From NCBI GenBank assembly GCA_023657425.1, contig JAGTJW010000002.1, positions 50,431 through 114,430 on the forward strand: DNA of 64,000 bases, in the 5' to 3' direction. A program made the position numbers and the translations under genes. Below are positions 20,426 to 35,521 of the stretch, piece by piece. The stretch's first letter is position 1. Every line of letters starts with the position of its first letter. The notes beneath the pieces are model-generated. The model did no database searches and was not told the DNA's origin. It worked only from the letters and a program-made list of their open reading frames with translations. The stretch is from Ideonella sp. WA131b (lineage in GTDB: Bacteria; Pseudomonadota; Gammaproteobacteria; Burkholderiales; Burkholderiaceae_C).

Positions 20426-20504
20426 AGCGCGCCTCGGGCGGCATCGAAGCGGGGTTTGCGGGCGGTCAGTCCGCCGCCACCTCGCGGCGCGCATGATCGC
20501 GCGC

Positions 20505-23183
20505 ATGAGCATCCGCCACCTCGACGCCCTCTTCGACCCCCACTCCGTGGCCCTCATCGGCGCCAGCGACAGGCCGGGCAGCGTCGGCGCCACCGTCTGG
20601 CGCAACCTGCGCAGCGCCGGCTTCGAGGGCCCGTGCTGGCCTGTCAACCCGCGGCGCGACACCGTGGGTGGCGAACACGCCTACGCCCGCGTCGCGGCGC
20701 TGCCGTCGGCGCCCGAGCTGGCCGTCGTGTGCGTGCCGCCGGCGGCGGTGCCGGGCGTGATCGCCGAGCTGGGCGAGCGCGGCACCCGCGCTGCCGTCGT
20801 GCTGACGGCGGGCCTGTCGCGGCAGCAGCAGCAGGCCATGCTCGACGCCGCCCGGCCCCACCTGCTGCGCATCCTGGGCCCCAACGGCCTGGGACTGATC
20901 GCGCCGCACGCACGGCTGAACGCCAGCTTTGCCCACGTCGGCGTGCCCGCGGGCGGGCTGGCCTTCGTGTCCCAGTCGGGTGCGCTGGTCACGGCCATGC
21001 TCGACTGGGCGCAGGGCCGCGGCATCGGCTTCTCGCACTGCGTGAGCCTGGGCGAGCACGCCGACGTCGATTTCGCCGACCTGCTGGACTGGCTGGCCAG
21101 CGACGCGCGCACGCAGGCCATCCTGCTCTACATCGAGAGCATCGAGGGCGCGCGCAAATTCATGAGCGCGGCGCGCGCGGCAGCCCGCAACAAGCCCGTG
21201 CTGGTGGTCAAGGCCGGCCGCAGCCCGCAAGGCGCCGCCGCGGCCCGCAGCCACACCGGCGCACTGGCGGCCAGCGACCTGGTGTTCGACGCCGCCATCC
21301 GCCGCGCCGGCATGCTGCGGGTGGACACGCTGCAGCGGCTGTTCGACGCCGCAGAGACCCTGGCCCACGCCCGCGCCGCCCCGGCAGCCGCCGAGTCGCC
21401 GCGCACGCTGATGATCGTCACCAACGGTGGCGGGGCCGGCGTGATGGCGGCCGACGCCGCCGCGGCCGCCGGTGTGCCCCTGGCCGAACTGACGCCCGGG
21501 TTGCGCGCCACGCTCGACGCCGTGCTGCCGCCGAACTGGAGCCGCGCCAACCCGGTGGACATCATCGGCGACGCACCTGCGGCACGCTACGCGGCGGCGC
21601 TGCAGGCGCTGCTGGAGCAGCCGCCCGGGTGTGCGGTGGGCGCGGTGCTGTTCATGCACGCGCCGACCGCCATCGTGCCCGCATCCGACATTGCCGAGGC
21701 GCTGCTGCCGCTGGTGGCGCGCCACCCGGGCCGCGTGCTCGCGGGCTGGCTGGGCGAGGCGGCCGTGCGGGGCGCGCGCCAGGCCTTCCAGGCCTCGGGC
21801 GTGCCCTGCTACGCCACGCCCGAGGCCGCCGTGGCCGCCTTTGCCCAGTTGCAGACCTACCGCGACAACCAGGCCGCGCTGACCGAGTGCCCGCCGCTGG
21901 GCGGGCCGGTGGCGGTGGACACCGCCCAGGTGGCCGCCGTGGTGCGGCAGGCGCTGGGGCAGGGCCGCGAGTGGCTGACCGAGCCCGAGGCCAAGTCCTT
22001 GCTCGCGGCCTGCGGCGTGCCCGTGGTCGGCACGCGGGTGGTGGCGCCTGAGCCGGCCGCCGCCGTGGCCGCGGCTCGCGAGCTGGGCCTGCCGGTGGTG
22101 CTGAAGATCCTGTCGCCGCAGATCACGCACAAGAGCGACGTCGGCGGCGTGGCCCTGCACCTGGAGACCGAGGCCGCCGTGGAGCAGGCCGCCCGCGCCA
22201 TGCTGGAACGCGTGCAACGGCTGCAGCCGGGTGCCACCGTCGAGGGCTACACCGTGCAGGCTATGGTGCGGCGGCCGCGGGCTCTGGAGCTCATCGTCGG
22301 CGCCAGCCTCGACCCGCTGTTCGGCCCCGTCATCCTGTTCGGGCACGGCGGCACGGCCGTGGAGGTGCTGGCCGACCGCGCCCTGGGCTTGCCGCCGTTG
22401 AACCCGCCGCTGGCCGCGCTGATGATCCGGCGCACGCGCGTGGCGCGGCTGCTTGCGGGCTGGCGCGACGTGCCCGCGGCCGACATCGCGGCGGTGGAGC
22501 GCGTGCTCGTGGCCGTCTCGGAGCTGATGGCCGCCGAGCCGCGCATCACCGAGCTCGACATCAACCCCCTGCTGGCCGATGCGGATGGCGTGATCGCGCT
22601 CGACGCCCGCGTGCGCGTCAGCGCCGCGGCGCCGGGGGGCGCGGCCCGATTCGCCATCCGGCCCTATCCGGCGCAGCAGGTGCAACGCCACCGCTGGCAG
22701 GGCCGCGAGCTCACCATCCGCCCCATCCGCCCCGAGGACGAGCCGCAGCATCTGAGTTTTCTGGAGCGGCTGTCGCCCGAAGACATCCGCATGCGCGTCT
22801 TCTACAGCCGCCGCACGCTGCCGCGCACCGAGCTGGCGCGGCTGGTGCAGATCGACTACGAGCGCGAGATGGCCTTCGTGGCCACTGTCGTGGGCGAAGG
22901 CGGCACCGAAGAGACGCTGGGCACCGCCCGCGCCGCCTGCGACCCCGACAACGACTGCGCCGAGTTCGGCGTCATCGTGCGCAGCGACGTCAAGGGCCAG
23001 GGCCTGGGCCGCTTGCTGATGGAGGCGCTCATCGCCCACTTGCGCCAGCGCGGCACGCAGCGCCTGGTGGGCGAGGTGCTGACCGAAAACCGCGGCATGC
23101 GCATGCTGTGCCAACGCCTGGGCTTTGCCGAGAAGCCCGACGGCGACGTGGTGTGCATGAGCCTGGCGCTGCGGCCGGGCTGA
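20505..23183 (+). CDS. protein lysine acetyltransferase Pat (CoA-binding/ligase-like/ATP-grasp plus GNAT fusion)
   Basis: SVALIGAS, ILGPNGLG, SQSGAL, KAGR, THKSDVGGV, LDINPL, C-terminal GNAT (IRPIRPEDE, GQGLGRLLM). Confidence 0.88.
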   Translation: MSIRHLDALFDPHSVALIGASDRPGSVGATVWRNLRSAGFEGPCWPVNPRRDTVGGEHAYARVAALPSAPELAVVCVPPAAVPGVIAELGERGTRAAVVLTAGLSRQQQQAMLDAARPHLLRILGPNGLGLIAPHARLNASFAHVGVPAGGLAFVSQSGALVTAMLDWAQGRGIGFSHCVSLGEHADVDFADLLDWLASDARTQAILLYIESIEGARKFMSAARAAARNKPVLVVKAGRSPQGAAAARSHTGALAASDLVFDAAIRRAGMLRVDTLQRLFDAAETLAHARAAPAAAESPRTLMIVTNGGGAGVMAADAAAAAGVPLAELTPGLRATLDAVLPPNWSRANPVDIIGDAPAARYAAALQALLEQPPGCAVGAVLFMHAPTAIVPASDIAEALLPLVARHPGRVLAGWLGEAAVRGARQAFQASGVPCYATPEAAVAAFAQLQTYRDNQAALTECPPLGGPVAVDTAQVAAVVRQALGQGREWLTEPEAKSLLAACGVPVVGTRVVAPEPAAAVAAARELGLPVVLKILSPQITHKSDVGGVALHLETEAAVEQAARAMLERVQRLQPGATVEGYTVQAMVRRPRALELIVGASLDPLFGPVILFGHGGTAVEVLADRALGLPPLNPPLAALMIRRTRVARLLAGWRDVPAADIAAVERVLVAVSELMAAEPRITELDINPLLADADGVIALDARVRVSAAAPGGAARFAIRPYPAQQVQRHRWQGRELTIRPIRPEDEPQHLSFLERLSPEDIRMRVFYSRRTLPRTELARLVQIDYEREMAFVATVVGEGGTEETLGTARAACDPDNDCAEFGVIVRSDVKGQGLGRLLMEALIAHLRQRGTQRLVGEVLTENRGMRMLCQRLGFAEKPDGDVVCMSLALRPG

Positions 23184-23186
23184 GGC

Positions 23187-23705
23187 TCAGCCCTTCTCGC
23201 GCGTCAGGCGCTCCGCGAACGAGATGCCGATGGCCGAGAGCACGAAGGTGAAATGGATCACCGCGACCAGCGTGACGATCTGGATGTTTTCGAGGGTGAG
23301 GTCGCCGCTGAGGTAGGTCTTCAGCGCGTGCACGCCCGAGATCGAGATGATCGCGAAGGCCAGCTTGAGCTTGAGGTTGTAGGTGTTGACGTGGTCGAGC
23401 CAGTCGGGCTTTTTCATGTCCTTGCTGTCGAAGTGCCCGGTGGTCACGAACAGCGACACGCCGGCCAGCGCCACCACCCACACCAGCTGCGCCACCATGG
23501 TCATGTCGACCAGCTCGAGCACCTTGATGATGAGCTCGATCTTCTCGAGCTTGCCGAACAGCAGCGTCTGCATCAGCTTGAAGGTCTCGAACAGGAACTT
23601 GCCCAGGATGCCCATGATGATGGCCACCAGCCCGGCGTAGAAGAACAGCATCATGAAGCGCATGCCGTACAGCAGCGAGCCGACACTGGAGAGGATCTTT
23701 TCCAT
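23187..23705 (-). CDS. YqhA/UPF0114 family membrane protein
   Basis: VLELVDMTMVAQL, LKLKLA..IISIS.VHAL, IHFTFVLSA. Confidence 0.8.
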   Translation of the reverse strand: MEKILSSVGSLLYGMRFMMLFFYAGLVAIIMGILGKFLFETFKLMQTLLFGKLEKIELIIKVLELVDMTMVAQLVWVVALAGVSLFVTTGHFDSKDMKKPDWLDHVNTYNLKLKLAFAIISISGVHALKTYLSGDLTLENIQIVTLVAVIHFTFVLSAIGISFAERLTREKG

Positions 23706-23731
23706 CAGCTTCCTTGGTTGTCGGTGCGCGT

Positions 23732-24313
23732 TCAGCCGCGCGCCCGATCGGCAGCGACACGCCGCCCTTGTTCACGCCGCCGCCGCTCGCGCCAGATCAG
23801 CACCGCCCAGCCCCAGTAGACCACCCCATAGGCGGCCACGCCCAGCACCAGGCCCGCCAGCGGGAAACCGGCCAGCAGGGCCGGCCCCCACGAGGTGATC
23901 TGCTCCCACAGCGCGCCGGGCCAGGACAGCGGATCGCTCCAGACCCACTCCACCGGTGTCGGCGCGACCGTGCCGGGGGTGGCCCTGGGCACGACGAAGG
24001 AACCCAGCCAGGCCGACAGCGCCCAGATCGGCGCCATCGTGAACGGGTTCGTCAGCCAGGTGGCCGCGGCGGCGGCGGCCACGTTGGCGCGCAGCGCCAC
24101 GGCGGCAAGCATGGCCGCCGGCATCTGCAGCGGCAACGGGAACACGCCGATGCCGATGCCCAGGGCCACGCCGAGCGCCACGCTGTGGCGATGCAGCACC
24201 CACAGCCGCGGGTGCTCACGCAGGTAGTGGCCCAGCCAGGCGAAACCACGGGTTTCTTCGAGCGTTTGGGCGGTGGGCAGCCAGCGGCGGAGGCGCTTCT
24301 TGAATTCGGGCAT
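23732..24313 (-). CDS. DUF2062 family membrane protein
   Basis: RLWVLHRHSVALGVALG, FPLPLQM, LRANV, TWLTNPFT. Confidence 0.85.
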   Translation of the reverse strand: MPEFKKRLRRWLPTAQTLEETRGFAWLGHYLREHPRLWVLHRHSVALGVALGIGIGVFPLPLQMPAAMLAAVALRANVAAAAAATWLTNPFTMAPIWALSAWLGSFVVPRATPGTVAPTPVEWVWSDPLSWPGALWEQITSWGPALLAGFPLAGLVLGVAAYGVVYWGWAVLIWRERRRREQGRRVAADRARG

Positions 24314-24372
24314 GGGGCGGTGCGGGCGACACCGATTGTCAGTCAACCCGGCCCACCCTGCCGCCGGGTTGC

Positions 24373-26898
24373 TCAAGGCTTGGCGGGCCTTGCTTCCGGG
24401 GAGTCGTCGGGAGGCGGCGCGAACAGCGGCCTGCCACGGCGCTCGCGCCAGTCACCCAGCAGCAGGAGCATCGGCGCAGCGACGAACACCGATGTGCAGG
24501 CCGCGATGACGATCCCGACCGCCATCGGGATGGCAAAGCTCGCAACCGCCGAGCCGCCCCAGACGGCCAGCGGCAGGATGGCCAGGAACGCCGTCACCGA
24601 GGTGTACAGGCTGCGCGTGAGCGTCTGGTTGATGGACTTGTCGATCACCTCGCGCAGGCTGCGGTTGCGCCGGCTCTGCAGGTTCTCGCGCATGCGGTCG
24701 TACACCACGACCTTGTCGTTCACCGAGTAGCCCACCAGCGTGAGCAGCGCCGCGATGGCGGTGAGGCTGAAGTCGAGCCGGGTCCACGCGAACACGCCGA
24801 GCGTGAGCACCACGTCCAGCAACAGCGTGGCGATGGCGCCCACGGCGAACGGCCACTCGAAGCGCACCCAGATGTAGACGAGCATCGCCAGCGTCGCCAG
24901 CACCATGGCCATCAGGCCGGCCCGCGTGAGCTCGCCGCTGACCTTGGGGCCAACCACCTCGCTGCGTTCGAAGTTCGCCTCGGGGTCGATGGCGCGCATC
25001 GCGGCCTTCAGCTTCTCGACAGCCTGGGTCTGCGCCACTTCGCCGCCGGCTTGCCGCTCCACGCGCACAAGCAGGCGGTCGCCTTCGCCCATGGTTTGCA
25101 GCGCGACTTCGCCGAGGCCGAGCTGGTCGAGCCCGGCGCGGAAGCGGGACAGGTCGTCGGGCTGCGTGACCGCCACCTCCATCTGGATGCCGCCGCGGAA
25201 GTCGATGCCGAAGTTCAGCCCCGGCTTGGCCAGGGACGTCACAGAGGCCAGCGCCAGCACCGCCGACACCAGCATCGTCGCCACGCCCAGCCGCATGAAG
25301 CCCACGTTCGTGCCGTCGGGCACGGGCCTGAAACCGAAAAGCGGCCGGATCTCCAGCGTCTTGAGCTTGCGCCGCCGGGCGATCGACAGCATCGCCACCT
25401 TCACCACCGAGACCGCGGTGAACATCGAGATCAGGATGCCCAGCGCCATGGTGATGGCGAATCCCCTCACCGGCCCGGAACCGAACGAGAACAGCAGCAC
25501 CGTGGCGATCAGGGCCGTGACGTTGCTGTCCATCACGGTGGCGTAGGCGCGGCGGAATCCCGAATCGATGGCCGTCAGCGCCGCCTTGCCCTTGAGAGTC
25601 TCCTCGCGGATCCGTTCATTGATGAGCACGTTGGCGTCCACCGCCAGCCCGATGCCGAGCACGATGCCCGCGATGCCGGGCAGCGTGAGCGTGGCTCCGA
25701 GCATGCTCATGCCGGCGATGGTGAGCACCACGTTGATGGCCAGGGCGGCGTTGGCCAGCAAGCCCCAGCCGCCATAGAGCACCACCATGAAGGCGAACAC
25801 GAACACGAAGGCGCCGATGCCCGCGAGGATGCCCTTGCGGATGACGTCGCTGCCCAGGTCGGCGCCCACGTTGCGTTCCTCGATCACCGTCAGTTTGGCC
25901 GGCAGCGCGCCGGCCCGCAGCAACGCAGCCAGGGTGCCGGCCTCCTGTACGGTGAAGCCGCCGGAGATCTGTCCCGCGCCGCCGGTGATGGGCTCGCGGA
26001 TGACCGGCGCGCTGAGCACCTTGTCGTCGAGCACGATCGCGAACGGACGGCCGACGTTGGCCTCGGTGATCGCGGCGAAGGCGCGCGCGCCTGCGCGGTC
26101 GAAGCGGAAGTTGACGATCGGTTCGCGGGTCTGCGTATCGAATCCCGCGCTGGCGTCGACCAGCCGGTCGCCCGAGAGCACAACGCGTCGGTTGATGGGG
26201 TAGGACTGGCCCTCGGCGTCCTGCATCGGGCGCACGCCCTCGGGGCTGGCTGCTTCTCCGAGCAGGTGGAAGCTCATCTTCGCGGTCGAACCCAGCAGCG
26301 CGCGCAGCTGCGCAGGGTCCTGCAGGCCGGGCAACTGCACCAGGATGCGGTTGGGCCCGACCCGCTGGATGGTGGGCTCGGACACGCCAACCTGGTCGAC
26401 GCGCTTGCGGATGACCTCCAGGCTCTGTTCCACCGCACGGTCGATGGCGATCTTCCGGCCCTCTTCGGTGAAGGTGAGCCCGAGGCCGCTTGAGCCCTGG
26501 GGGCGTACGTCGAGGTCGGGGCGACCCGATGGGCCGGGCCTGACGAGGCTGTCCAGCTGGTCTTGCGCGCGCGTCAGGTCGGACGGGTCGCGCAGTTCGA
26601 CGCTCAGGCCTTGCTGGTGGATGTTCAGGGCACGGATCGGCAGCGAGGCCTCGCGCAGGACACGACGCGTGTCGTCGGCCAGCGATCGCGCGCGGTCGTC
26701 GAGCAAGGCTGCGCCATCGACCTCGAGCACCAGGTGCGAGCCACCGCGCAGATCGAGTCCCAGGGCTAAGGGGCGGTCGGGCAGGAAGGCCGGCCAGCGT
26801 TCCAGCACGGAAGAAGGCAGCACGTTCGGCAGGGCGAACAGCAAGCCGCAGAGGATGATGGCCAGGTAACTGGCCACCCGGTAAGGGGAGTTCTTCAT
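24373..26898 (-). CDS. secDF: fused protein translocase subunit SecDF (841 aa)
   Basis: LGLDLRGG, RVDQVGVSEP, DANVLINERIREE (SecD half); GIDFRGG, GYSVNDKVVVYDRMRE, QTLTRS (SecF half), all in one ORF. Confidence 0.95.
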   Translation of the reverse strand: MKNSPYRVASYLAIILCGLLFALPNVLPSSVLERWPAFLPDRPLALGLDLRGGSHLVLEVDGAALLDDRARSLADDTRRVLREASLPIRALNIHQQGLSVELRDPSDLTRAQDQLDSLVRPGPSGRPDLDVRPQGSSGLGLTFTEEGRKIAIDRAVEQSLEVIRKRVDQVGVSEPTIQRVGPNRILVQLPGLQDPAQLRALLGSTAKMSFHLLGEAASPEGVRPMQDAEGQSYPINRRVVLSGDRLVDASAGFDTQTREPIVNFRFDRAGARAFAAITEANVGRPFAIVLDDKVLSAPVIREPITGGAGQISGGFTVQEAGTLAALLRAGALPAKLTVIEERNVGADLGSDVIRKGILAGIGAFVFVFAFMVVLYGGWGLLANAALAINVVLTIAGMSMLGATLTLPGIAGIVLGIGLAVDANVLINERIREETLKGKAALTAIDSGFRRAYATVMDSNVTALIATVLLFSFGSGPVRGFAITMALGILISMFTAVSVVKVAMLSIARRRKLKTLEIRPLFGFRPVPDGTNVGFMRLGVATMLVSAVLALASVTSLAKPGLNFGIDFRGGIQMEVAVTQPDDLSRFRAGLDQLGLGEVALQTMGEGDRLLVRVERQAGGEVAQTQAVEKLKAAMRAIDPEANFERSEVVGPKVSGELTRAGLMAMVLATLAMLVYIWVRFEWPFAVGAIATLLLDVVLTLGVFAWTRLDFSLTAIAALLTLVGYSVNDKVVVYDRMRENLQSRRNRSLREVIDKSINQTLTRSLYTSVTAFLAILPLAVWGGSAVASFAIPMAVGIVIAACTSVFVAAPMLLLLGDWRERRGRPLFAPPPDDSPEARPAKP

Positions 26899-26987
26899 GG
26901 ACGAAACCGGAAGGGCGAGCACCGGGCGCTGCCTGGTACTCGCCAACTGACGTTGAGAGCGGGTGGCGCGCCAGTGGCACGCCGACG

Positions 26988-27380
26988 TCAGGCCTCGGAG
27001 GGAGGGCCCCGGCAACCCGACGAACGCGGGCAGGCCCGGTAGATCCCGGGATCAGGAGCGGGCGCCGTGCCGGCGTCATCGCTGGCCGGCGGAGGTCTCG
27101 TGTCGCTGGGTGGCGGTGCTGCGCTGGGTGTATCGGTCCCGCCGGGGGCGGGCTGCCAGGCCTGGGCTAGCCAGTCCGTCTGCGACACCGCCAGGTCGCG
27201 GCGCAAACCCCGCAGCGTTGCCACACAGCCCGTGGGCCGCTGCAGCGCGAGCTGGCCAGCTTCGAGGGCTCCGACGAGTGCACCATCGGCGGGCGCCGGT
27301 GACGCCGTCGCCGGCCTGCTGGCAAGCGCCAATCCCAGGCCCAGAACGACCGTGATCCAAAGCGCACGAAACCAGCTCAT
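26988..27380 (-). CDS. putative secretion-monitor ribosome-arrest peptide (ApdP/SecM-like uORF), 130 aa
   Basis: GGAG SD 10 nt before ATG; signal peptide MSWFRALWITVVLGLGLALASRPATA; Pro-rich linker; C-terminal ...SGCRGPPSEA*; stop 90 nt upstream of secDF. Confidence 0.72.
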   Translation of the reverse strand: MSWFRALWITVVLGLGLALASRPATASPAPADGALVGALEAGQLALQRPTGCVATLRGLRRDLAVSQTDWLAQAWQPAPGGTDTPSAAPPPSDTRPPPASDDAGTAPAPDPGIYRACPRSSGCRGPPSEA

Positions 27381-27522
27381 GCCGCGGATTCTCCAGCAGG
27401 CCAGGGCCCGACCATCCTGCGCCTGGACGAAGAGTCCCCGAGCCTGCCGCATTTCGGCCAGGCAAGCCTGTCATCAGACGGACCCGCACTCCCGCTTTCA
27501 GGGACCGGCATCCGGAAGCTGA

Positions 27523-27554
27523 GTGCTGCCCGGACCAGTCGTCTCGGGCAGCAC
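27523..27554. other. 10-bp hairpin between terC and the uORF
   Basis: GTGCTGCCCG-N12-CGGGCAGCAC; no U tract. Confidence 0.4.
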
Positions 27555-27570
27555 CTCCATCTCCATAAGG

Positions 27571-28623
27571 TCAAGGGACCGGGGCATCCACGGCACCACG
27601 GCGGGTCTTCCACAGCGAGAACAGCACACCGCCCGCCAGCAGGCCCGCCGTCACCGACAGGCTCAGCGCGGCCGGCACCTTGCCGTCGAACAGCCAGTCA
27701 CCCAGGAAGATCTTGGCGCCGATGAAGATGAGCACGATGGACAACGCGTACTTCAGGTAGTGGAAGCGGTGCACCACGGCGGCCAGCGCGAAGTACAGCG
27801 CGCGCAGGCCCAGGATGGCGAAGATGTTGCTCGTGTAGACGATGAAGGCGTCGGGTGTGATGGCGAAGATGGCCGGCACGGAGTCGATCGCGAACACCAG
27901 GTCGGCGATCTCCACCAGCACGAGGCACAGGAAGAGGGGTGTGGCCCAAAGCACGACCTTGCCGGTCTTGGGGTCGGGCTGGCGGACCCAGAAGCGCTGG
28001 CCATGCAGCTGCTCGGTCACGCGCAGGCGCTTGCGCAGGAACTTCAGCACCGGGTTGTTCTCGATGTCCGGCTTGCTGTCCATCATCACGATCATCTTGA
28101 TGCCGGTGGCAATCAGGATGACGGCGAAGATGTACATGACCCACGAGAACTCCGCCACCAGCGCGGCGCCCAGGCCGATCATGATGGCGCGCAGCACGAT
28201 CACGCCCAGGATGCCCCAGAACAGCACGCGGTGCTGGTACTCGCGCGGCACTGCGAAGTACGTGAAGATCATCGAGATGATGAACACGTTGTCCAGGGCC
28301 AGTGTCTTCTCCACCAGATAGCCGGTGATGTACAGCTGCACGGCCGTCCAGGCGCGTTCGCCGGCCGAGGCGGCCTCGGCGATCTGTGGGTCGATCGAGC
28401 TGGTGCCGGAGTAGGTGTGGTAGATCCAGTACACGGCGCCGGCCCAGGCCAGGCCCAGGCCGATGTACAGCGCCGACATGTTCAGGCTCTCGCGCACGCC
28501 GATCTCGTGCACCTCGCGGTTCATGATGCCGAGGTCGAAGGCCAGGATGGCCAGGACAACGGCGATGAACGCCAGCCATATCCAGGCCGGCATGCCCAGC
28601 CAGAGGGTGAAGAGAAATTCCAT
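27571..28623 (-). CDS. TerC/Alx family metal homeostasis membrane protein
   Basis: FDLGI, GYLVEKTLALDNVF, QHRVLFWGILG, DLVFAIDSVPA, YTSNIFAILGLRALYF. Confidence 0.93.
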   Translation of the reverse strand: MEFLFTLWLGMPAWIWLAFIAVVLAILAFDLGIMNREVHEIGVRESLNMSALYIGLGLAWAGAVYWIYHTYSGTSSIDPQIAEAASAGERAWTAVQLYITGYLVEKTLALDNVFIISMIFTYFAVPREYQHRVLFWGILGVIVLRAIMIGLGAALVAEFSWVMYIFAVILIATGIKMIVMMDSKPDIENNPVLKFLRKRLRVTEQLHGQRFWVRQPDPKTGKVVLWATPLFLCLVLVEIADLVFAIDSVPAIFAITPDAFIVYTSNIFAILGLRALYFALAAVVHRFHYLKYALSIVLIFIGAKIFLGDWLFDGKVPAALSLSVTAGLLAGGVLFSLWKTRRGAVDAPVP

Positions 28624-28718
28624 GGGGAAGCGGCCTTTCAGGGCCGCGCGAGGGCGGCGAAGCGCGAATCATCGGCAGTGCGACGCTGCGGTCCAAGCAG
28701 GGCTTGTGTGACACTGAC

Positions 28719-28733
28719 TTCGGTTTTTCCGAA
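28719..28733. promoter_or_regulatory. palindromic LysR (NhaR-type) binding site
   Basis: TTCGG-TTTTT-CCGAA inverted repeat containing T-N11-A, between divergent terC and LysR. Confidence 0.6.
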
Positions 28734-28755
28734 CCCAGCAGCTGGAGGGGTCTTG

Positions 28756-29640
28756 GTGGATCAGATCAGTTACCGCCATCTGCACTACTTTTGGGTGGTG
28801 GCCAAGGAAGGCGGGTTCGCGCGCGCGGCGGCGCGGCTGGACATGGCGGTGCAGACCGTCAGCGCGCAGGTGCGCGAGCTCGAGCGTGCGCTGGGCCACC
28901 AGCTGCTCAAGCCCACGGGGCGCTGCGTCGTGCTCACCGAAGCGGGCGAGGCCGCGTTCGCCCGCGCCGAGGACATCTTCCGCATCGGCCAGGCGCTGCC
29001 CGCGGCCGTGCGCGACGCCGCCAGCCTGCGCACGGTGCGGCTGGCCGTGGGGTTGTCGGACGGCATCTCGAAGCTCGCCGCGCACGCCTTGCTCGGGCCG
29101 GTGCTGTCCACGCCCCACCTGCGGCTGCTGTGCCACGACGGAGAGTTCGAGCACCTGCAGGCCGAGCTGGCGATGCACCACCTGGACCTGGTGCTCGCCG
29201 GTCAGCCCGCGCCACCCAACCCGACGCTGCGCTTGTCGAGCGAGCGGCTGGCCTCGGCCCCGGTGGACTGGTACGGCCCCGCCTCGCTGCTGCGGCGCGT
29301 CGACGCCCGGCACTTTCCGGACTGCCTGGCCGAGCTGCCGGTGCTGCTGCCCACCGCCCACGCGGCCTTGCGCGGCGCGATCGAGCGCTGGTTCGACCAG
29401 CACGGCCTGCAGCCGCGTGTGACCGGCGAGTTCGAAGACAGCGCGCTCATGGCGGTGTTCGCGGCGCAAGGACTGGGCGTGTTTCCGGTCAGCCGCCTGG
29501 GGATGCAAGACCTGCGTTTGCTGCGCGACCTGCGGCTGCTCGGCCGCAGCGACGAGGTGCGCGAAGACATTTACGCCATCCGGTCCCGACGCGGCTTGCA
29601 CCACCCGTTGGTGCGCCGGGTCGTCGAGGCTGCGGGCTGA
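28756..29640 (+). CDS. LysR family regulator, NhaR-like
   Basis: GTG start after GGAGGG; YRHLHYFWVVAKEG, QTVSAQVRELE, LAVGLSDGISK, GEFEDSALM. Confidence 0.88.
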   Translation: MDQISYRHLHYFWVVAKEGGFARAAARLDMAVQTVSAQVRELERALGHQLLKPTGRCVVLTEAGEAAFARAEDIFRIGQALPAAVRDAASLRTVRLAVGLSDGISKLAAHALLGPVLSTPHLRLLCHDGEFEHLQAELAMHHLDLVLAGQPAPPNPTLRLSSERLASAPVDWYGPASLLRRVDARHFPDCLAELPVLLPTAHAALRGAIERWFDQHGLQPRVTGEFEDSALMAVFAAQGLGVFPVSRLGMQDLRLLRDLRLLGRSDEVREDIYAIRSRRGLHHPLVRRVVEAAG

Positions 29641-29944
29641 GAGCGCGAACGTCTTTCGCGCCGGCCCGCTCGTCCTTGCACAGGCCCGCCGCAGCCCGAG
29701 CCCATTGTGGGCTTGACGCCCGGATCGGGGGTCTTTGGACGCGTCGCCCGGGCACGCCCGAACAAACTCGCGCGCTCTTGGGATGCGGGTGCTGGCAGAG
29801 CCCATGCACCCACCGACGTTGCATGATCCGGCGTCCGGCGCCACCGGCGGAGACCAGCGGTCGCCCTGCAGCAGAACCACACGGGATGGCCCGCCGGGCC
29901 TCCCGGCCATCGGCCCTCGGGCCGTCATTTCCACAGCCCCAGCG

Positions 29945-32900
29945 ATGACCGAATCGACAGCCTCCGACACCGCCCGCGGCACCACCGAGCCCTTGCCCGT
30001 GCCGCCGCCACAGCCGCTGCGCAACCCCCTGCGCACGCGCGCCGACTGGGAGCGCCAGCGCCAGGCCTGCCTGGCCGACCCCGGTGCCTTCCACGGGGCC
30101 ATCGCCGCACGCGAGATCCACTGGTGGGTGCCCGCCGGGGCCGACCCCGCCATCGGCGCGGGCGGCGCCTGGCTCACGTTCGACGAGGCCGGCGGCACCT
30201 GGCGCGGCTGGTGCGCCGCCAGCGCCGGGCCGGTGGCCACCGCGCTGGGTGAGGGCTTCATGCCCTGGGCGCGCGCCTTCGACGACACACAGCCGCCGCA
30301 CTGGCGCTGGTTCAGCGGCGGCTGCACCAACGCCGGCTTCAACGAGGTCGACCGCCACGTGCTGGCCGGCCACGGCGACGAAGACGCCGTCATCTACGAA
30401 GGGGACCGCTGGGACATGGCTGCCGACGGCGGCCGCGGCGCGCCGCTGGAAAGCGAACGCATCAGCCGCCGCCGCCTGCTGCTGGAGACGGCCAAGTGCG
30501 CCGTGGCGCTGCGTGCCTTGGGCCTGAAGCCCGGCGACCGCATCGCGCTGAACCTGCCCAACATCCCGCAGCAGCTCTACTGGACCGAGGCCGCCAAGCG
30601 GCTGGGCATCGTCTACACGCCGGTGTTCGGCGGCTTCTCCGACAAGACCCTGTCCGACCGCATCCACGACGCCGGTGCCCAGGTGGTGATCACCGCCGAC
30701 GGCGGCTACCGCATGGCGCAGGTGGTGCCCTACAAGACCGCCTACACCGACCCCGCGCTCGACAACTTCGTGCCGCTGGCCACCGCCCGCGCCGTGGTGG
30801 CGGCGCGGCTGCCGACGCTGACCCTGAGCCCGGCGCAGTCGCAGCGCCTGCTGGCTGTGCTGGACGAAGCCCTGGCCGGCGAGGTGACGCTGCTGCGCGG
30901 CGACGTGATGCGCGGCGTGGGCCGCGCGCTGGCCGAGCTGGGCCGCGCCGGCCTGGCCGCCGAGGCCGCAGGGCAGGTGCGCGTGGCGCTGGCCGAGGCC
31001 CTGGTGCACACACCGCCGCGCGTGCAGACGGTGGTGGTGGTGCGCCACACGGCGCAGCCCGATCTGGTGTGGCGCCCCGAGCGCGACCGCTGGGCCCACG
31101 AGCTGACCGACGCCGCGCTCGCCCCGCTGCTGCAGGCCGCGGGCGTGGCCAACGAGGCCGCCATGCTGGCCTTGCCCGCGGCCGAGCTGGTGCGCGCGGT
31201 GTGGGCCGTGGTGCCGCCGCTGAAGCTGGATGCCGAGGTGCCGCTCTTCTTCATCTACACCAGCGGCTCCACCGGCAAGCCCAAGGGCGTGGTGCACGTG
31301 CACGGCGGCTACACCGCGGGCGTGGCGCACACCATGAAGGTGGCCTTCGACGCCCGCCCCGGCGAGGTGATGTACGTCGTGGCCGACCCCGGCTGGATCA
31401 CCGGCCAGAGCTACATGATCAGCGCCGCGCTCACCACGCGCGTGACCAGCGTCATGACCGAGGGCGCGCCGGTGTTCCCGCACGCCGGGCGCTTCGCATC
31501 GATCATCGAGCGCTACCGCGTGGCCATCTTCAAGGCCGGCGTCACCTTCCTGAAGACGGTGATGACCGACCCGCAGAACGCCCAGGACGTGCAGCGCCAC
31601 GACATGCGCTCGCTGCGCGTGGCCACCTTCTGCGCCGAGCCCACGAGCCCGGCGGTGCAGCAGTTCGGCATGGGGCTGATGACGCCCTGGTACATCAACA
31701 GCTACTGGGCCACCGAGCACGGCGGCATCGCCTGGACGCACTTCTACGGCAACGGCGACTTCCCCCTGCGCGCCGACGCCCACACCTACCCGCTGCCGTG
31801 GATCGTGGGCGACGTGCGGATTGAAGACGCCACGGCGCCGGCACCCGCGGCGCTGCCGTTCGCCCCGTTCGCCCGTGCGGCAGGCGAGGGCGGCGCCCCC
31901 TGGCGCGAGGCCGCCGCAGGCGAGAAGGGCGAGATCGTCATCGCCGCCCCGTACCCCTACCTGGCGCGCACGGTGTGGGGCGATGCGGAAGGCTTCCGCC
32001 TCGAGCCCGCGGGCGCCCATGGCGTGGGCCTGCGCGTGGTGCCCGCCTGGCGCGGCGACGGCGAGCGCTGGCGCAAGACCTACTGGACGCGCTGGCAGGG
32101 CGCCTGGGCCTACACGCAGGGCGACTTCGCGGTGCGCCACGCCGACGGCGGCTATTCGCTGCACGGCCGCAGCGACGACGTCATCAACGTCAGCGGCCAC
32201 CGCATCGGCACCGAAGAGATCGAAGGCGCCATCCTGCGCGACAAGACGCTGGACCCGGATTCGCCCGTGGGCAACGTCATCGTGGTGGGCGCGCCGCACC
32301 GCGAGAAGGGGCTCACGCCGCTGGCCTTCGTCAAGCCCGCCGCCGGCCGCCGCCTGAGCCAGGACGACCGCCGCCGCCTGGCCGACCTCGTGCGCCAGGA
32401 AAAGGGCGCCGTCGCCGTGCCCGGCGACTTCATCGAGGTGACGCAGTTCCCCGAAACACGCAGCGGCAAATACATGCGCCGCATGGTGCGCGCGCTGGTG
32501 GAAGACTTGCCCGTGGGCGACGCGACGACGCTGAAGAACCCGGAGTCCATCGAGGAGCTGGCGCGCGCCATCGGCGCCTGGAAGCGCGCGCAGCAGCTGG
32601 CCGACGAGCAGCAGCTCTTCGAGCGCCACCGCTACTTCCGCATCCAGGTCAACGCGATCGCGCCGGGGCGCCGCGTGGCGACCGTGTTCGTCACCAACCC
32701 GCCGGTGAACGCACTCAACGAGCGCGCGCTCGACGAGCTCAACCTCGTGGTCGACCACCTGGCGCGGCGCGACGACATGGCCGGCGTGGTGTTCACCGGC
32801 GACGGCGGCAGCTTCATCGCCGGGGCCGACATCCGGCAGCTGCTGGAAGAGGTGCGCCACATCGAGCAGGCGCGTGTGCTGCCCCACAACGCGCAGCTCG

Positions 32901-35521
32901 CCTTCAGCCGCATCGAGGCCATGGCCGCGGCCGGCAAGCCCTGCATCGCCGCCATCAATGGCGTGGCCCTGGGCGGTGGCCTGGAGTTCGCGCTGGCCTG
33001 CCACTGGCGCATCGCCGAGCCGGTGGCGCGTTTCGGGCAGCCCGAGATCCGCCTGCGCCTGCTGCCCGGCTACGGCGGCACGCAGCGCCTGCCGCGGCTG
33101 CTGCACGCCCGCCGCGGCGCCGCGGGGCTGGTGGATGCGCTGGAGCTGGTGCTGGGCGGGCGTTCGGTGGATGCCGCCACGGCGGCGCAGATGGGCCTGG
33201 TGGACGAGCTGGCGCAGGGCGCCGACGACGCGCTTTCGCTGGCACACCAGCGGCTGCGCGAGTTTGTGCGGCACGGCGAAGACTCACCGCTCGGCCGCGC
33301 CCTGGCCGCGCGCCGCGCGATGACAGCGCAGTGGGCGCAGCCGCTGCCCGGCCTGCCGGCGGTGCTGGATGCCGCGCTGGCCGACCCCCACCTGCGCAGG
33401 GTGCAGGCGCAGCTGGCCTGGGCCGGCCGCGGCACGGCGCGCGACCGTGCGCTCGACGCGCTGGCCACCGGCCTGCGCGAGGGCCTGGCCGCCGGCCTGG
33501 CGCGCGAGGCCGAACTGTTTGCGCAGGCCATCGTCGACCCCGAGGGGGGCAAGACCGGCATCGCCGAGTTCATGGACAAGCGCAGCCCGCCGCTGCCCAT
33601 GCGCCGCGGCGGCGTGCGCCGGCCGGCGCGCGAGCCGGGTCTGGTGGATGAGCTCGTGGCCCAGGGCCAGCTGCTGCCGCTGGGGGCGCCTTTCTTCCCG
33701 GGCGTGACGCCGCTGCCGGCCTGGCAGCTTGGCTTTGGCGTCGAACGCGATCCCGACACCGGCGCGCCGCGTTTCGGCCCGCCGCTGGCCAGCGAGGTCG
33801 AGCTGCTGTTCCCGGTGCCGCGGCCCGGCCCCAACGAGGCCGTGGTCTACGTGCTGGCGTCTGAAGTGAACTTCAACGACATCTGGGCACTCACCGGCAT
33901 CCCCGTCTCGGCCTTCGACGGCCACGAGGAAGACATCCAGATCACCGGCAGCGGCGGCGTGGCCTTGGTGGCCGCACTCGGCAGCGAGGCCCGCCGCGAA
34001 GGCCGGCTGAAGGTGGGCGACCTCGTTTCCATCTACTCGGGCCAGACCGAGCTGCTCTCGCCGCAGGCCGGGCGCGACCCCATGTTCGCGGCTTTTCGCA
34101 TCCAGGGCTACGAGAGCGAGACCGGCAGCCACGCGCAGTTCTTGCTCGTGCAGGCGCCGCAGCTGCACCCGGTGCCGGCCGACCTGACGCTGGAGCAGGC
34201 CGGCGCCTACACGCTGAACCTGGGCACCGTGAACCGCGCGCTGTTCACCACGCTGCAGGTGCGGCCGGGGCAGACGCTGTTCGTCGAAGGCGCGGCCACC
34301 GGCACGGGCCTGGATGCGCTGAAGACCGCCGTGCGCGCCGGGCTGAGCGTGACGGGCGGCGTGTCGAGCGCGGAGCGCGCCGCGGCCGTCGTGCGCGAAG
34401 GCGCGGTCGGCGCGCTCGACCGCCGTTCACCAGGCTTTGCAGCGCTGTACACGCCAGTGCCCGAAGGCGAAGAGGCCACCCGTGCCTGGGAGGCTGCCGG
34501 CGAGCCGCTGCTGGCGGCCTACCGCGCACTCAATGGCGGGCGCCTGGCCGACTGCGTGGTGTCGCATGCCGGTGAGACGGCGTTTGCGCGCAGCTTCCAG
34601 CTGCTGGCCAAGGGCGGCGCGCTGGCCTTCTACGGCGCCAGCTCGGGCTATCACTTCAGCTTCGTGGGCAAGGCCGGCCACGCCACGCCCGAGGCCATGC
34701 TGGCCCAGGCGCAGGCCCAGGCGGGCGAGTCGGTGCTGCTGTACTACGGCATCGACGGCCCGGCCCTGCTGGACGCCACCGGCCTGGCCATGCTCGAGGC
34801 CCTGCGCGCGATGGGCGCGCGCACGGTGGTGGCCTGCGCCAGCGACGCGCAGCGCGAGTTCGTGCAGTCGCTGGGCTTCGAAGACGCGCTGGCCGGCGTC
34901 GTCTCGCTCGAAGAAGTGCAGCGCCGCGCCGGCCTCGCCTTCCACTGGCCCCGCAGCATGCCGCGCCTGCCCGACGCCCGGGGCGACACCGAGGCCTTCA
35001 AGCAGGCCGTGCGCGACTTCCAGGAGAAGACGCTCAAACCTTTCGGCAACGCCGTGGGCGCCGCGCTGCGCAGCCCCGACAACCCGCGCGGCGCGCCCGA
35101 TCTCGTCATCGAGCGCGCCGGGCACGATGCGCTGGGCGTGTCGACGGCGCTGGTGAAGCCCTACACCGGCCGCGTCGTCTACTTCGAGAGCCTGGCGCAC
35201 CGCCGCTACAGCTTCTACGCGCCGCAGGTGTGGACGCGGCAGCGCCGCATCCTCATGCCGACGGCCCACATCCTGGGCACGCACCTGTGCAACGCCTTTG
35301 AAGTGACGCGCATGAACGACCGCATCGCCGCCGGGCTGCTGGCGGTGACCGAACCGACCGTGGTGCCCTGGGCGCAGCTGCCGCAGGCCCACCAGGCCAT
35401 GTGGGACAACGCCCACGCCGGTGCCACCTACCTCGTCAACCACGCGCTGCCGGCCCTGGGCCTGCGCGGGCGCGATGCGCTGCTGGAGCGCTGGGCGGCG
35501 GGCGAGCGGGCAACTCCTTGA
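29945..35521 (+). CDS. pcs: trifunctional propionyl-CoA synthase (acyl-CoA synthetase + enoyl-CoA hydratase + acrylyl-CoA reductase), ~1858 aa
   Basis: YTSGSTGKPKG, YWATEHGG, PETRSGKYMRR (ACS); NPPVNALN, GGGLEFALAC, PGYGGTQRLPR (ECH); SEVNFNDIW, GSHAQF, YTLNLGT (MDR reductase). Confidence 0.88.
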   Translation: MTESTASDTARGTTEPLPVPPPQPLRNPLRTRADWERQRQACLADPGAFHGAIAAREIHWWVPAGADPAIGAGGAWLTFDEAGGTWRGWCAASAGPVATALGEGFMPWARAFDDTQPPHWRWFSGGCTNAGFNEVDRHVLAGHGDEDAVIYEGDRWDMAADGGRGAPLESERISRRRLLLETAKCAVALRALGLKPGDRIALNLPNIPQQLYWTEAAKRLGIVYTPVFGGFSDKTLSDRIHDAGAQVVITADGGYRMAQVVPYKTAYTDPALDNFVPLATARAVVAARLPTLTLSPAQSQRLLAVLDEALAGEVTLLRGDVMRGVGRALAELGRAGLAAEAAGQVRVALAEALVHTPPRVQTVVVVRHTAQPDLVWRPERDRWAHELTDAALAPLLQAAGVANEAAMLALPAAELVRAVWAVVPPLKLDAEVPLFFIYTSGSTGKPKGVVHVHGGYTAGVAHTMKVAFDARPGEVMYVVADPGWITGQSYMISAALTTRVTSVMTEGAPVFPHAGRFASIIERYRVAIFKAGVTFLKTVMTDPQNAQDVQRHDMRSLRVATFCAEPTSPAVQQFGMGLMTPWYINSYWATEHGGIAWTHFYGNGDFPLRADAHTYPLPWIVGDVRIEDATAPAPAALPFAPFARAAGEGGAPWREAAAGEKGEIVIAAPYPYLARTVWGDAEGFRLEPAGAHGVGLRVVPAWRGDGERWRKTYWTRWQGAWAYTQGDFAVRHADGGYSLHGRSDDVINVSGHRIGTEEIEGAILRDKTLDPDSPVGNVIVVGAPHREKGLTPLAFVKPAAGRRLSQDDRRRLADLVRQEKGAVAVPGDFIEVTQFPETRSGKYMRRMVRALVEDLPVGDATTLKNPESIEELARAIGAWKRAQQLADEQQLFERHRYFRIQVNAIAPGRRVATVFVTNPPVNALNERALDELNLVVDHLARRDDMAGVVFTGDGGSFIAGADIRQLLEEVRHIEQARVLPHNAQLAFSRIEAMAAAGKPCIAAINGVALGGGLEFALACHWRIAEPVARFGQPEIRLRLLPGYGGTQRLPRLLHARRGAAGLVDALELVLGGRSVDAATAAQMGLVDELAQGADDALSLAHQRLREFVRHGEDSPLGRALAARRAMTAQWAQPLPGLPAVLDAALADPHLRRVQAQLAWAGRGTARDRALDALATGLREGLAAGLAREAELFAQAIVDPEGGKTGIAEFMDKRSPPLPMRRGGVRRPAREPGLVDELVAQGQLLPLGAPFFPGVTPLPAWQLGFGVERDPDTGAPRFGPPLASEVELLFPVPRPGPNEAVVYVLASEVNFNDIWALTGIPVSAFDGHEEDIQITGSGGVALVAALGSEARREGRLKVGDLVSIYSGQTELLSPQAGRDPMFAAFRIQGYESETGSHAQFLLVQAPQLHPVPADLTLEQAGAYTLNLGTVNRALFTTLQVRPGQTLFVEGAATGTGLDALKTAVRAGLSVTGGVSSAERAAAVVREGAVGALDRRSPGFAALYTPVPEGEEATRAWEAAGEPLLAAYRALNGGRLADCVVSHAGETAFARSFQLLAKGGALAFYGASSGYHFSFVGKAGHATPEAMLAQAQAQAGESVLLYYGIDGPALLDATGLAMLEALRAMGARTVVACASDAQREFVQSLGFEDALAGVVSLEEVQRRAGLAFHWPRSMPRLPDARGDTEAFKQAVRDFQEKTLKPFGNAVGAALRSPDNPRGAPDLVIERAGHDALGVSTALVKPYTGRVVYFESLAHRRYSFYAPQVWTRQRRILMPTAHILGTHLCNAFEVTRMNDRIAAGLLAVTEPTVVPWAQLPQAHQAMWDNAHAGATYLVNHALPALGLRGRDALLERWAAGERATP

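Follow-up and report, generated by a model that had tools for sequence, protein, structure and literature searches.

In Escherichia coli, NhaR is a LysR-type transcriptional regulator (LTTR) that activates nhaA, osmC, and pgaABCD under Na+ and alkaline pH. MeeF and MeeY, TerC proteins of Bacillus subtilis, co-immunoprecipitate with SecDF, SecY, and YrbF (He et al. 2023, PMC10550928). In Vibrio, the leader peptide VemP switches SecDF paralogs (PMC7897499). Sakiyama et al. (2021, PMC7897499) and Fujiwara et al. (2024, PMC10987492) place ApdP and the RQH family of arrest peptides upstream of secDF2 and demonstrate arrest-dependent induction of secDF2 via a stem-loop; the motif RGPP arrested translation experimentally (PMC10987492). 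Here we consider a locus with an NhaR-like LTTR, terC, a short upstream open reading frame (uORF), and secDF. It lies in a 64-kb stretch of DNA (the window; G+C ~70%) from Ideonella sp. WA131b, and the host is a Rubrivivax-like member of the Burkholderiales. An earlier reading of this DNA (the original prediction) had cited the link between TerC and the Sec machinery in Bacillus (PMC10550928) and the switching of SecDF by VemP in Vibrio (PMC7897499), correctly in both cases.

The locus probably brings together two regulatory units that are autonomous and of known kinds: the NhaR-like LTTR would control terC, and an ApdP-like arrest peptide would control secDF2. Judging from related loci, the adjacency of the two units has a single origin and has been rearranged since, and one integrated system is not conserved. 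The original prediction was of a two-layer system, in which an ion or pH signal acts on transcription and export failure acts on translation. Each layer is well supported singly, and the ion theme is plausible, but we did not find one integrated operon that recurs. Matches to Pfam and NCBIfam profiles confirmed the identities of the genes in the 23187–29640 region, and along with the list of open reading frames they agree with the genes and orientations that had been described (lysR on the plus strand; terC, the uORF, secDF, a DUF2062 gene, and yqhA on the minus strand). The features of the first unit are:

28756–29640, plus strand: NhaR-like LTTR, 294 amino acids, GTG start (Pfam HTH_1 and LysR_substrate)
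28719–28733, no strand: predicted LTTR box, TTCGG-N5-CCGAA (a palindrome, conserved in related spacers)
28668–28711, minus strand: conserved terC-proximal region, a putative promoter (alignment of 27 loci; fixed spacing from the box)
27571–28623, minus strand: terC, membrane protein of the TerC/Alx subfamily, 350 amino acids (PF03741, 171 bits; TIGR03718, 390.3 bits)
27523–27554, minus strand: G+C-rich hairpin, 17 nt past the terC stop codon (folding)

The regulator's best NCBIfam match is NhaR (NF008284) at 165.3 bits, and the next-best family scores 76 bits. Because the score is below the equivalog cutoff of 219 bits, we consider the regulator to be NhaR-like but not an NhaR equivalog. Besides having NhaR as its best curated family, it has an N-terminal motif that resembles NhaR's (SYRHLHYFW), and like E. 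coli NhaR it would control a divergent or adjacent gene for a membrane protein of ion handling. However, the partner gene is terC, not nhaA: the neighbors of lysR are terC and a propionyl-CoA-synthase-like gene. We refined the start of lysR to the GTG at 28756, which is preceded by GGAGGGG. The same LysR (60–82% identity) adjoins and diverges from terC in half of the terC-related loci that we fetched (25/50), from Rubrivivax, Ideonella, Rhizobacter, Roseateles, Piscinibacter, Acidovorax, and Hydrogenophaga. In a search of the literature, we came across no published account of terC paired with an NhaR-like regulator.

As originally predicted, the regulator diverges from terC and a perfect TTCGG-N5-CCGAA site lies between them. 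This palindrome (TTCGGAAAAACCGAA) is the only exact match to the pattern in the window, where shuffled sequences would give 0.03. Its sequence (TCGGAAAAACCGA) also has the T-N11-A form of LTTR sites, and with the HTH_1 and LysR_substrate domains and the divergent target gene, the arrangement is that of a classic LTTR divergon. In the 132-nt divergent spacer, the box precedes the lysR start by 22 nt, and its center precedes the terC ATG by 103 nt. We compared 27 distinct LysR-terC spacers: 17 have the exact box, and 24 have it with at most one mismatch. The half-sites are conserved, the 5 nt between them vary, and the distance to the lysR start is always ~20–30 nt. Nearly all of the related spacers that bear the box have no secDF nearby. 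At a fixed distance from the box, the alignment of these spacers shows TCAcTnTAnCGCTGCTT and then a -10-like GATGA or GATCA. The window's copy of the first element is TCACACAAGCCCTGCTT, at 28711–28695 (the family consensus being TCAcTnTAnCGCTGCTT), and its -10-like GATGAT is at 28673–28668. By analogy to the standard architecture of LTTR promoters, these terC-proximal elements may be the activation binding site, -35, and -10 elements. If GATGAT is the -10 element, then the center of the box would be near -65 to -70. The conservation pattern supports the box as a recognition site for the LTTR that serves the divergent lysR and terC promoters, since this is the footprint expected of such a site.

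The membrane protein belongs to the TerC/Alx subfamily (390.3 bits for TIGR03718, as compared to a cutoff of 246.4). Like E. coli Alx, the other riboswitch-led TerC genes, and B. subtilis MeeF and MeeY, it seems to have one dedicated regulator, but the kind of regulator differs. E. coli Alx and other terC genes have yybP-ykoY or terC-RNA leaders, while this terC has an LTTR with a conserved box and no RNA leader. An Rfam scan of 22000–31000 (E ≤ 1) matched no family, including the yybP-ykoY and terC RNA motifs, so no riboswitch or leader RNA explains the control of terC here. Conversely, when we scanned 11 loci with LysR-less orthologs of terC, 5 of them had the terC RNA motif (RF03067) in the leader (L087:5773–5830, L121:5558–5627, L108:5856–5912, L117:5855–5911, and L112:5859–5915). 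These hosts are Steroidobacteraceae, Silanimonas, Lysobacteraceae, and Novosphingobium. This distribution suggests that the LTTR takes the place of the terC RNA leader in the window's lineage, a protein regulator having been exchanged with an RNA one. TerC would then have a dedicated regulator throughout, and in Burkholderiales that regulator would be the LTTR.

The features of the second unit are:

26988–27380, minus strand: uORF, 130 amino acids, ApdP/RAPP-like candidate arrest peptide (signal and RGPP)
27000–27011, minus strand: codons for R124-G125-P126-P127, predicted arrest site (motif conservation)
26899–26987, minus strand: spacer between the uORF and secDF, 89 nt, two hairpins (folding)
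24373–26898, minus strand: fused SecDF of the SecDF2 type, 841 amino acids (NF009583, 974.8 bits)

The fused SecDF scores well above the NF009583 cutoff of 721 bits and contains the Pfam SecDF domains, with a SecD P1 head, GG motifs, and two SecD_SecF_C domains. Directly upstream, on the same strand and 89 nt away, is the uORF. Its product has an N-terminal hydrophobic signal (MSWFRALWITVVLGLGLALA); a signal or transmembrane segment is found in MSWFRALWITVVLGLGLALASRPATA, and the highest Kyte-Doolittle hydropathy for any 11 residues is 2.58, at residues 9–19. At the other end, the peptide closes with GCRGPPSEA, so that RGPP is at residues 124–127 of 130, and an R/Q/H-A/G-P-P motif lies within the last ~15 residues. 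As in ApdP and other RAPP-like peptides, ~100 residues separate the signal from the motif. Only two homologs of the uORF were found among 5.8 billion proteins. One of them (P0002), at 52% identity, keeps both the hydrophobic signal at the N-terminus and GCRGPP at the C-terminus. We had also considered RACP (within IYRACP) as a SecM-like arrest motif, but P0002 conserves GCRGPP and not RACP, and we rejected it. The start context of the uORF (GGAGAAT-N7-ATG) is also present in L131, which has the closest uORF homolog.

In the 80 genome loci with related SecDF that we surveyed, 72 have an ORF that ends 75–145 nt upstream of secDF and whose stop codon follows RAPP, RGPP, or HGPP by a few codons. 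A set of metagenome loci (L132–L211) gave a similar picture, with such a uORF upstream of secDF in 55 of the 73 that could be assessed. We therefore view the window's uORF as a supported candidate for an ApdP/RAPP-like secretion monitor, and the earlier claim of an arrest uORF holds at that level. The nearest relatives of the window's SecDF are from a handful of Burkholderiales, followed by ~70 SecDF2 proteins from Rhizobiales and other Alphaproteobacteria (55–66% identity). In a neighbor-joining tree, the 12 SecDF sequences from Burkholderiales are monophyletic and are nested within the alphaproteobacterial SecDF2 radiation.

The spacer between the uORF and secDF folds, as a single sequence, into two hairpins (-62.9 kcal/mol, z = -2.5). 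A consensus fold of four sequences keeps these hairpins in L131, L001, and L083, with compensatory changes at 9 of 34 pairs. In this four-sequence fold, the last codons of the uORF may pair with nucleotides immediately 5' of the secDF ATG, and the covariation term is positive. The pairing would fit a model in which a stalled ribosome opens the way to secDF, but the fold has four sequences and there is no clear Shine-Dalgarno sequence.

This unit resembles the ApdP-SecDF2 systems of the RQH family, as described by Sakiyama et al. (PMC7897499) and Fujiwara et al. (PMC10987492), in many ways: a co-oriented uORF directly upstream of a fused secondary SecDF, a hydrophobic N-terminal signal, the ~100-residue separation, RGPP a few codons before the stop, a structured spacer of ~90 nt, and a SecDF nested in the alphaproteobacterial SecDF2 clade. 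It differs in that the host is from the Burkholderiales, that the uORF is unrelated in sequence outside the motif, and that secDF has no obvious Shine-Dalgarno sequence. The likeness to VemP-SecD2F2 of Vibrio alginolyticus is more general. That system also has a secretion-monitoring leader that induces a paralogous SecDF when export fails and that ties export capacity to the ionic environment, but VemP has another, helical arrest sequence, with no sequence similarity to the uORF, and in Vibrio secD2 and secF2 are separate genes. We also noticed that Ottowia thiooxydans DSM 14619 has two ApdP-like uORF-secDF2 copies, on different scaffolds (L006 and L007).

If the two units formed one system, then their arrangement should recur. 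Using tblastn, we compared six proteins from the window to all of the fetched loci. Only a few Burkholderiales have LysR and TerC beside secDF, in three architectures:

Architecture A: lysR and terC diverge from the box, and the uORF and secDF follow terC (the window and L001)
Architecture B: terC and lysR diverge from the box, and the uORF and secDF follow lysR (L002, L010, L003/L133, L151, and L083)
Architecture C: terC and the uORF diverge from the box, secDF follows the uORF, and lysR is cleanly deleted (L004)

In architecture C, lysR is gone from L004:6080–6530, and terC and uORF-secDF still have an LTTR box (TTCGGTTTTTCCGCA, at 6291) between them. Architecture A has been seen in metagenome-assembled genomes only; one carrier of architecture B, Hydrogenophaga sp. 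2FB, can be cultivated. Four other loci (L005, L006, L007, and L132) have the uORF-secDF cassette without the LysR-terC pair and with unrelated neighbors (HtpG, a sulfatase, or an ATP-grasp protein). Thus the predicted order of LysR, terC, uORF, and secDF is shared only with L001, and elsewhere the pair is inverted, has lost lysR, or is absent. Starting from terC gives the same answer: among the 50 terC loci, with 25 LysR-terC pairs, secDF is within 6 kb in only 2. A recurring module of this kind is not borne out. Even in L001, the only other locus where terC and the uORF share an orientation, the uORF (L001:6519–6890) is interrupted by an in-frame TAG, and RDPP replaces RGPP. This monitor may be decaying, or there may be an error in the metagenome-assembled genome (MAG). 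We saw neither TerC nor LysR near the ~70 alphaproteobacterial ApdP-secDF2 loci. A separate caution concerns L083, which is labelled as a MAG of Bosea thiooxidans: its LysR-terC-secDF genes are Burkholderiales-like (TerC is 90% identical), so this contig may be misbinned.

The SecDF tree, which covers the TerC-adjacent loci other than L083 and L151, places every one of them in a single Burkholderiales sub-clade of 9 tips; therefore, the adjacency arose once. The closest relatives of the window's terC, in L081 and L129 (~91% nucleotide identity), lack the cassette. Instead, terC is followed by DUF2062 after 127–140 nt, and the homology of DUF2062 to these loci begins at 24319 in the window. Because L081 and L129 join terC directly to DUF2062, the 3.27-kb uORF-secDF segment (27587–24320) is an insertion or deletion. 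We found no repeats or shared sequence at the borders of the cassette. The gene order in L116 is different again, and in L131, whose contig has only 209 nt upstream of the uORF, these cannot be aligned to the window's terC-uORF spacer or to the end of its terC, so that L131 does not bear on terC.

In a sister lineage, the cassette also has signs of its own promoter. In architectures B and C and in L132, a conserved block lies 80–120 nt upstream of the uORF, with, in order, AGGAAAAnCCGAACC, ~10 nt, TATAGTC, 6 nt, and GTGAcC (promoter-like block at L002:5500–5580, L010:5590–5670, L003:6360–6440, L133:3035–3115, L151:5360–5440, L004:6365–6445, and L132:5337–5431). A profile of the block detects L132 (E = 1e-7), a locus without LysR or TerC, so the cassette in the sister lineage appears to bring a promoter with it. 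The profile has no match in the window's 190-nt spacer between terC and the uORF, and no block could be aligned across the window-type uORFs (the window, L001, L083, and L131). We also found no second LTTR box within two mismatches in that spacer. Sites with two mismatches to the box in L083 and L003 are inside the conserved block and occur at about the rate expected by chance (0.45 per kb).

Does transcription continue from terC into the cassette? The hairpin after terC exists as originally noted: it has a perfect 10-bp G+C-rich stem, and folding of the 76 nt around it gives -36.4 kcal/mol (z = -3.2). It could not be aligned in L001, L081, or L129. A scan for consensus promoters and terminators, which is uninformative at 70% G+C, gave no minus-strand terminator and a single promoter-like site, inside terC. 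Public sequencing runs that contain the window's sequence are lake-water metagenomes and one low-depth metatranscriptome (X25). At that depth, X25 gave sparse contigs of ~250 nt on secDF, terC, lysR, and DUF2062, and none across 26614–27951. For the Hydrogenophaga-type locus, the runs that we found have the behavior of DNA. Co-transcription of the cassette from the terC promoter is possible in the window. As the related loci appear, however, it is not a conserved feature, because the arrangements vary and the closest terC relatives lack the cassette.

We propose the following. The NhaR-like LTTR would bind TTCGG-N5-CCGAA in the divergent spacer, autoregulate lysR, and activate terC/alx. By analogy, its signal might be a cation, alkaline pH, or related to Mn. 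Separately, when export is efficient, the Sec machinery would pull on the signal-bearing nascent chain of the uORF and free the ribosome that had paused at R124-G-P-P127. When export is impaired, the ribosome would remain stalled over the last codons of the uORF and would remodel the two-hairpin spacer, which would allow initiation at secDF2. SecDF2 would then serve as a back-up export motor driven by the proton motive force. The uORF-secDF2 cassette would have come from the alphaproteobacterial SecDF2 radiation and would have joined LysR-terC once, in the ancestor of one sub-clade of Burkholderiales. Later rearrangements would have inverted the LysR-terC pair, deleted lysR, or removed the cassette. 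With the cassette placed between terC and DUF2062 in the window, some secDF2 mRNA may also come from transcripts that start at the LTTR-controlled terC promoter and read through, by accident and not by design.

Several observations weigh against the proposal that the two units are autonomous. In all three architectures, uORF-secDF is downstream of one of the two divergent promoters that the box would control. The window's terC-uORF spacer has no recognizable promoter or conserved block, so co-transcription in the window's arrangement stays plausible. Nor is there a canonical terminator after terC, as the hairpin has no U-tract and went uncalled in the terminator scan. TTCGG/CCGAA-like half-sites in the sister-lineage block could mean that the LTTR acts on the cassette in trans, but the likeness of the block to the LTTR box is not statistically significant. 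TerC proteins do associate physically with SecDF in B. subtilis (PMC10550928). Within the second unit, the sequestration of the secDF start rests on four sequences, with no obvious Shine-Dalgarno sequence before secDF, and we infer arrest by the window's uORF from its sequence.

Some of these observations would be explained if the locus were an integrated, two-layer operon after all. The LTTR would sense ions or pH and drive terC-uORF-secDF-DUF2062-yqhA, the arrest peptide would gate secDF, and TerC and SecDF2 would be supplied together. We consider this unlikely, though it survives better than the other alternatives. The five genes are co-oriented with short gaps, the order is the same in L001, and neither a U-tract terminator after terC nor a promoter in the terC-uORF spacer was detected. 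The co-purification of TerC with SecDF in B. subtilis (PMC10550928) and the repeated adjacency of the SecDF2 clade to cation-homeostasis genes (see below) would also fit. But the operon would exist only in the window and in L001, whose uORF is disrupted. The pair is inverted in five other loci, lysR is deleted in one, and the pair is absent in four. The nearest terC relatives have no cassette, and elsewhere the cassette has its own conserved upstream block. The strong hairpin after terC and the lack of a second LTTR box (at up to two mismatches) before the uORF also speak against a single operon.

A second alternative is that a physical or functional partnership of TerC and SecDF2 keeps the genes together, such as for metal loading of exported proteins or ion exchange, as has been proposed for MeeF and MeeY. 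This would account for the survival of the TerC-SecDF adjacency through three rearranged architectures, and it has a precedent in the co-immunoprecipitation of MeeF and MeeY with SecDF, SecY, and YrbF (PMC10550928). We doubt it strongly, because the adjacency has a single origin, is absent from ~140 other SecDF2 loci and from 47 of the 50 terC loci, and was lost in L132, L081, L129, and L116. Furthermore, no alphaproteobacterial locus that we surveyed has TerC near SecDF2. Least probable of all is that a horizontally acquired cassette just happened to land here, making the adjacency neutral and devoid of any regulatory or functional link: the indel relative to close relatives, the nested phylogeny that indicates transfer from Alphaproteobacteria, and the heterogeneous neighbors where the pair is absent (HtpG, sulfatase, ATP-grasp) are as it would predict, but the adjacency survived an inversion and a deletion, and cation-homeostasis genes (YbaL, Mrp/Pha, MscK, and TerC) adjoin SecDF2 more often than expected for ~1% of the genome (a rough estimate).

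To describe these neighbors, we clustered the flanking genes of the 80 genome loci and named the representatives. A CPA2 K+ efflux protein or antiporter of the YbaL family (702 bits; cutoff 700) is co-oriented and directly upstream of the uORF in 21 loci (L008, L012, L015–L019, L021–L026, L030, L032–L035, L038, L040, and L041) and directly downstream of secDF2 in 4 (L046, L060, L064, and L070). The association with YbaL is repeated in ~19 of the 80 metagenome loci (L132–L211). In seven loci, a Mrp/Pha cation/H+ antiporter operon is directly downstream of secDF2 (L014, L029, L031, L036, L042, L049, and L074), and in seven, an MscK-like channel is divergently upstream (L053, L058, L061, L063, L064, L070, and L076). 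Counting TerC/Alx and the NhaR-like regulator of Burkholderiales, four non-homologous systems for cation homeostasis flank the SecDF2 clade in different lineages. The pattern, uncorrected for phylogeny, looks non-random because such classes make up ~1% of genes by a rough estimate. We saw no mention of antiporters in Sakiyama et al. 2021 (PMC7897499). An ion or pH link to SecDF2 is plausible. Going further, SecDF2 of the ApdP clade might be a back-up motor for cation or alkaline stress, its placement by cation systems might reflect selected co-expression, and in the window the terC transcript might read through the hairpin while the RGPP peptide gates translation of secDF2. As a whole, this extension is a speculation that we expect to be wrong. 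If it were true, secDF2 would be under two-input control, by an ion signal and by export failure.

The features downstream of secDF are:

23732–24313, minus strand: DUF2062 membrane protein, start refined to the ATG at 24313 (PF09835, 116 bits)
23187–23705, minus strand: UPF0114/YqhA-family membrane protein (PF03350, 86 bits; G+C 0.60)

DUF2062 persists nearby through all of the rearrangements, whether after terC, after secDF, or beside lysR (window 23732–24313, L081:6431–6955, L129:487–1008, L131:3292–3846, L003:9691–10158, and L116:4294–4834). The G+C content of yqhA is 0.60, compared to 0.70 for the window, and its protein is 92% identical to those of Hydrogenophaga (L002 and L010), while the neighboring genes are just 61–75% identical to the Hydrogenophaga copies. 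Either recent transfer or strong constraint could account for this. Beyond yqhA, 20493–23183 (plus strand) encodes an 896-amino-acid protein similar to ADP-forming acyl-CoA synthetases, with a C-terminal GNAT region (Pat-type acetyltransferase). Directly 3' of lysR, 29945–35521 (plus strand) encodes a fusion of ~1860 amino acids with acyl-CoA synthetase, enoyl-CoA hydratase, and crotonyl-CoA-reductase-like domains, which is the architecture of a propionyl-CoA-synthase-like protein.

The order of LysR, terC, uORF, and secDF is thus not a conserved system but one among several arrangements that go back to a single joining of the units. What is well conserved is the NhaR-like LTTR with TerC/Alx, an apparently undescribed regulatory pair with a clear putative operator, TTCGG-N5-CCGAA. 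Through this operator, the signal to which TerC/Alx proteins respond could be approached. The range of the ApdP-type arrangement of arrest peptide and SecDF2 includes the Burkholderiales, which apparently received it from Alphaproteobacteria in a single transfer. Its leader peptide changes rapidly and keeps just the signal peptide and the R-G/A-P-P tail. For the role of secondary SecDF paralogs outside of Vibrio, the neighborhood pattern points to a possibility that can be tested, that they are important during cation or alkaline stress.

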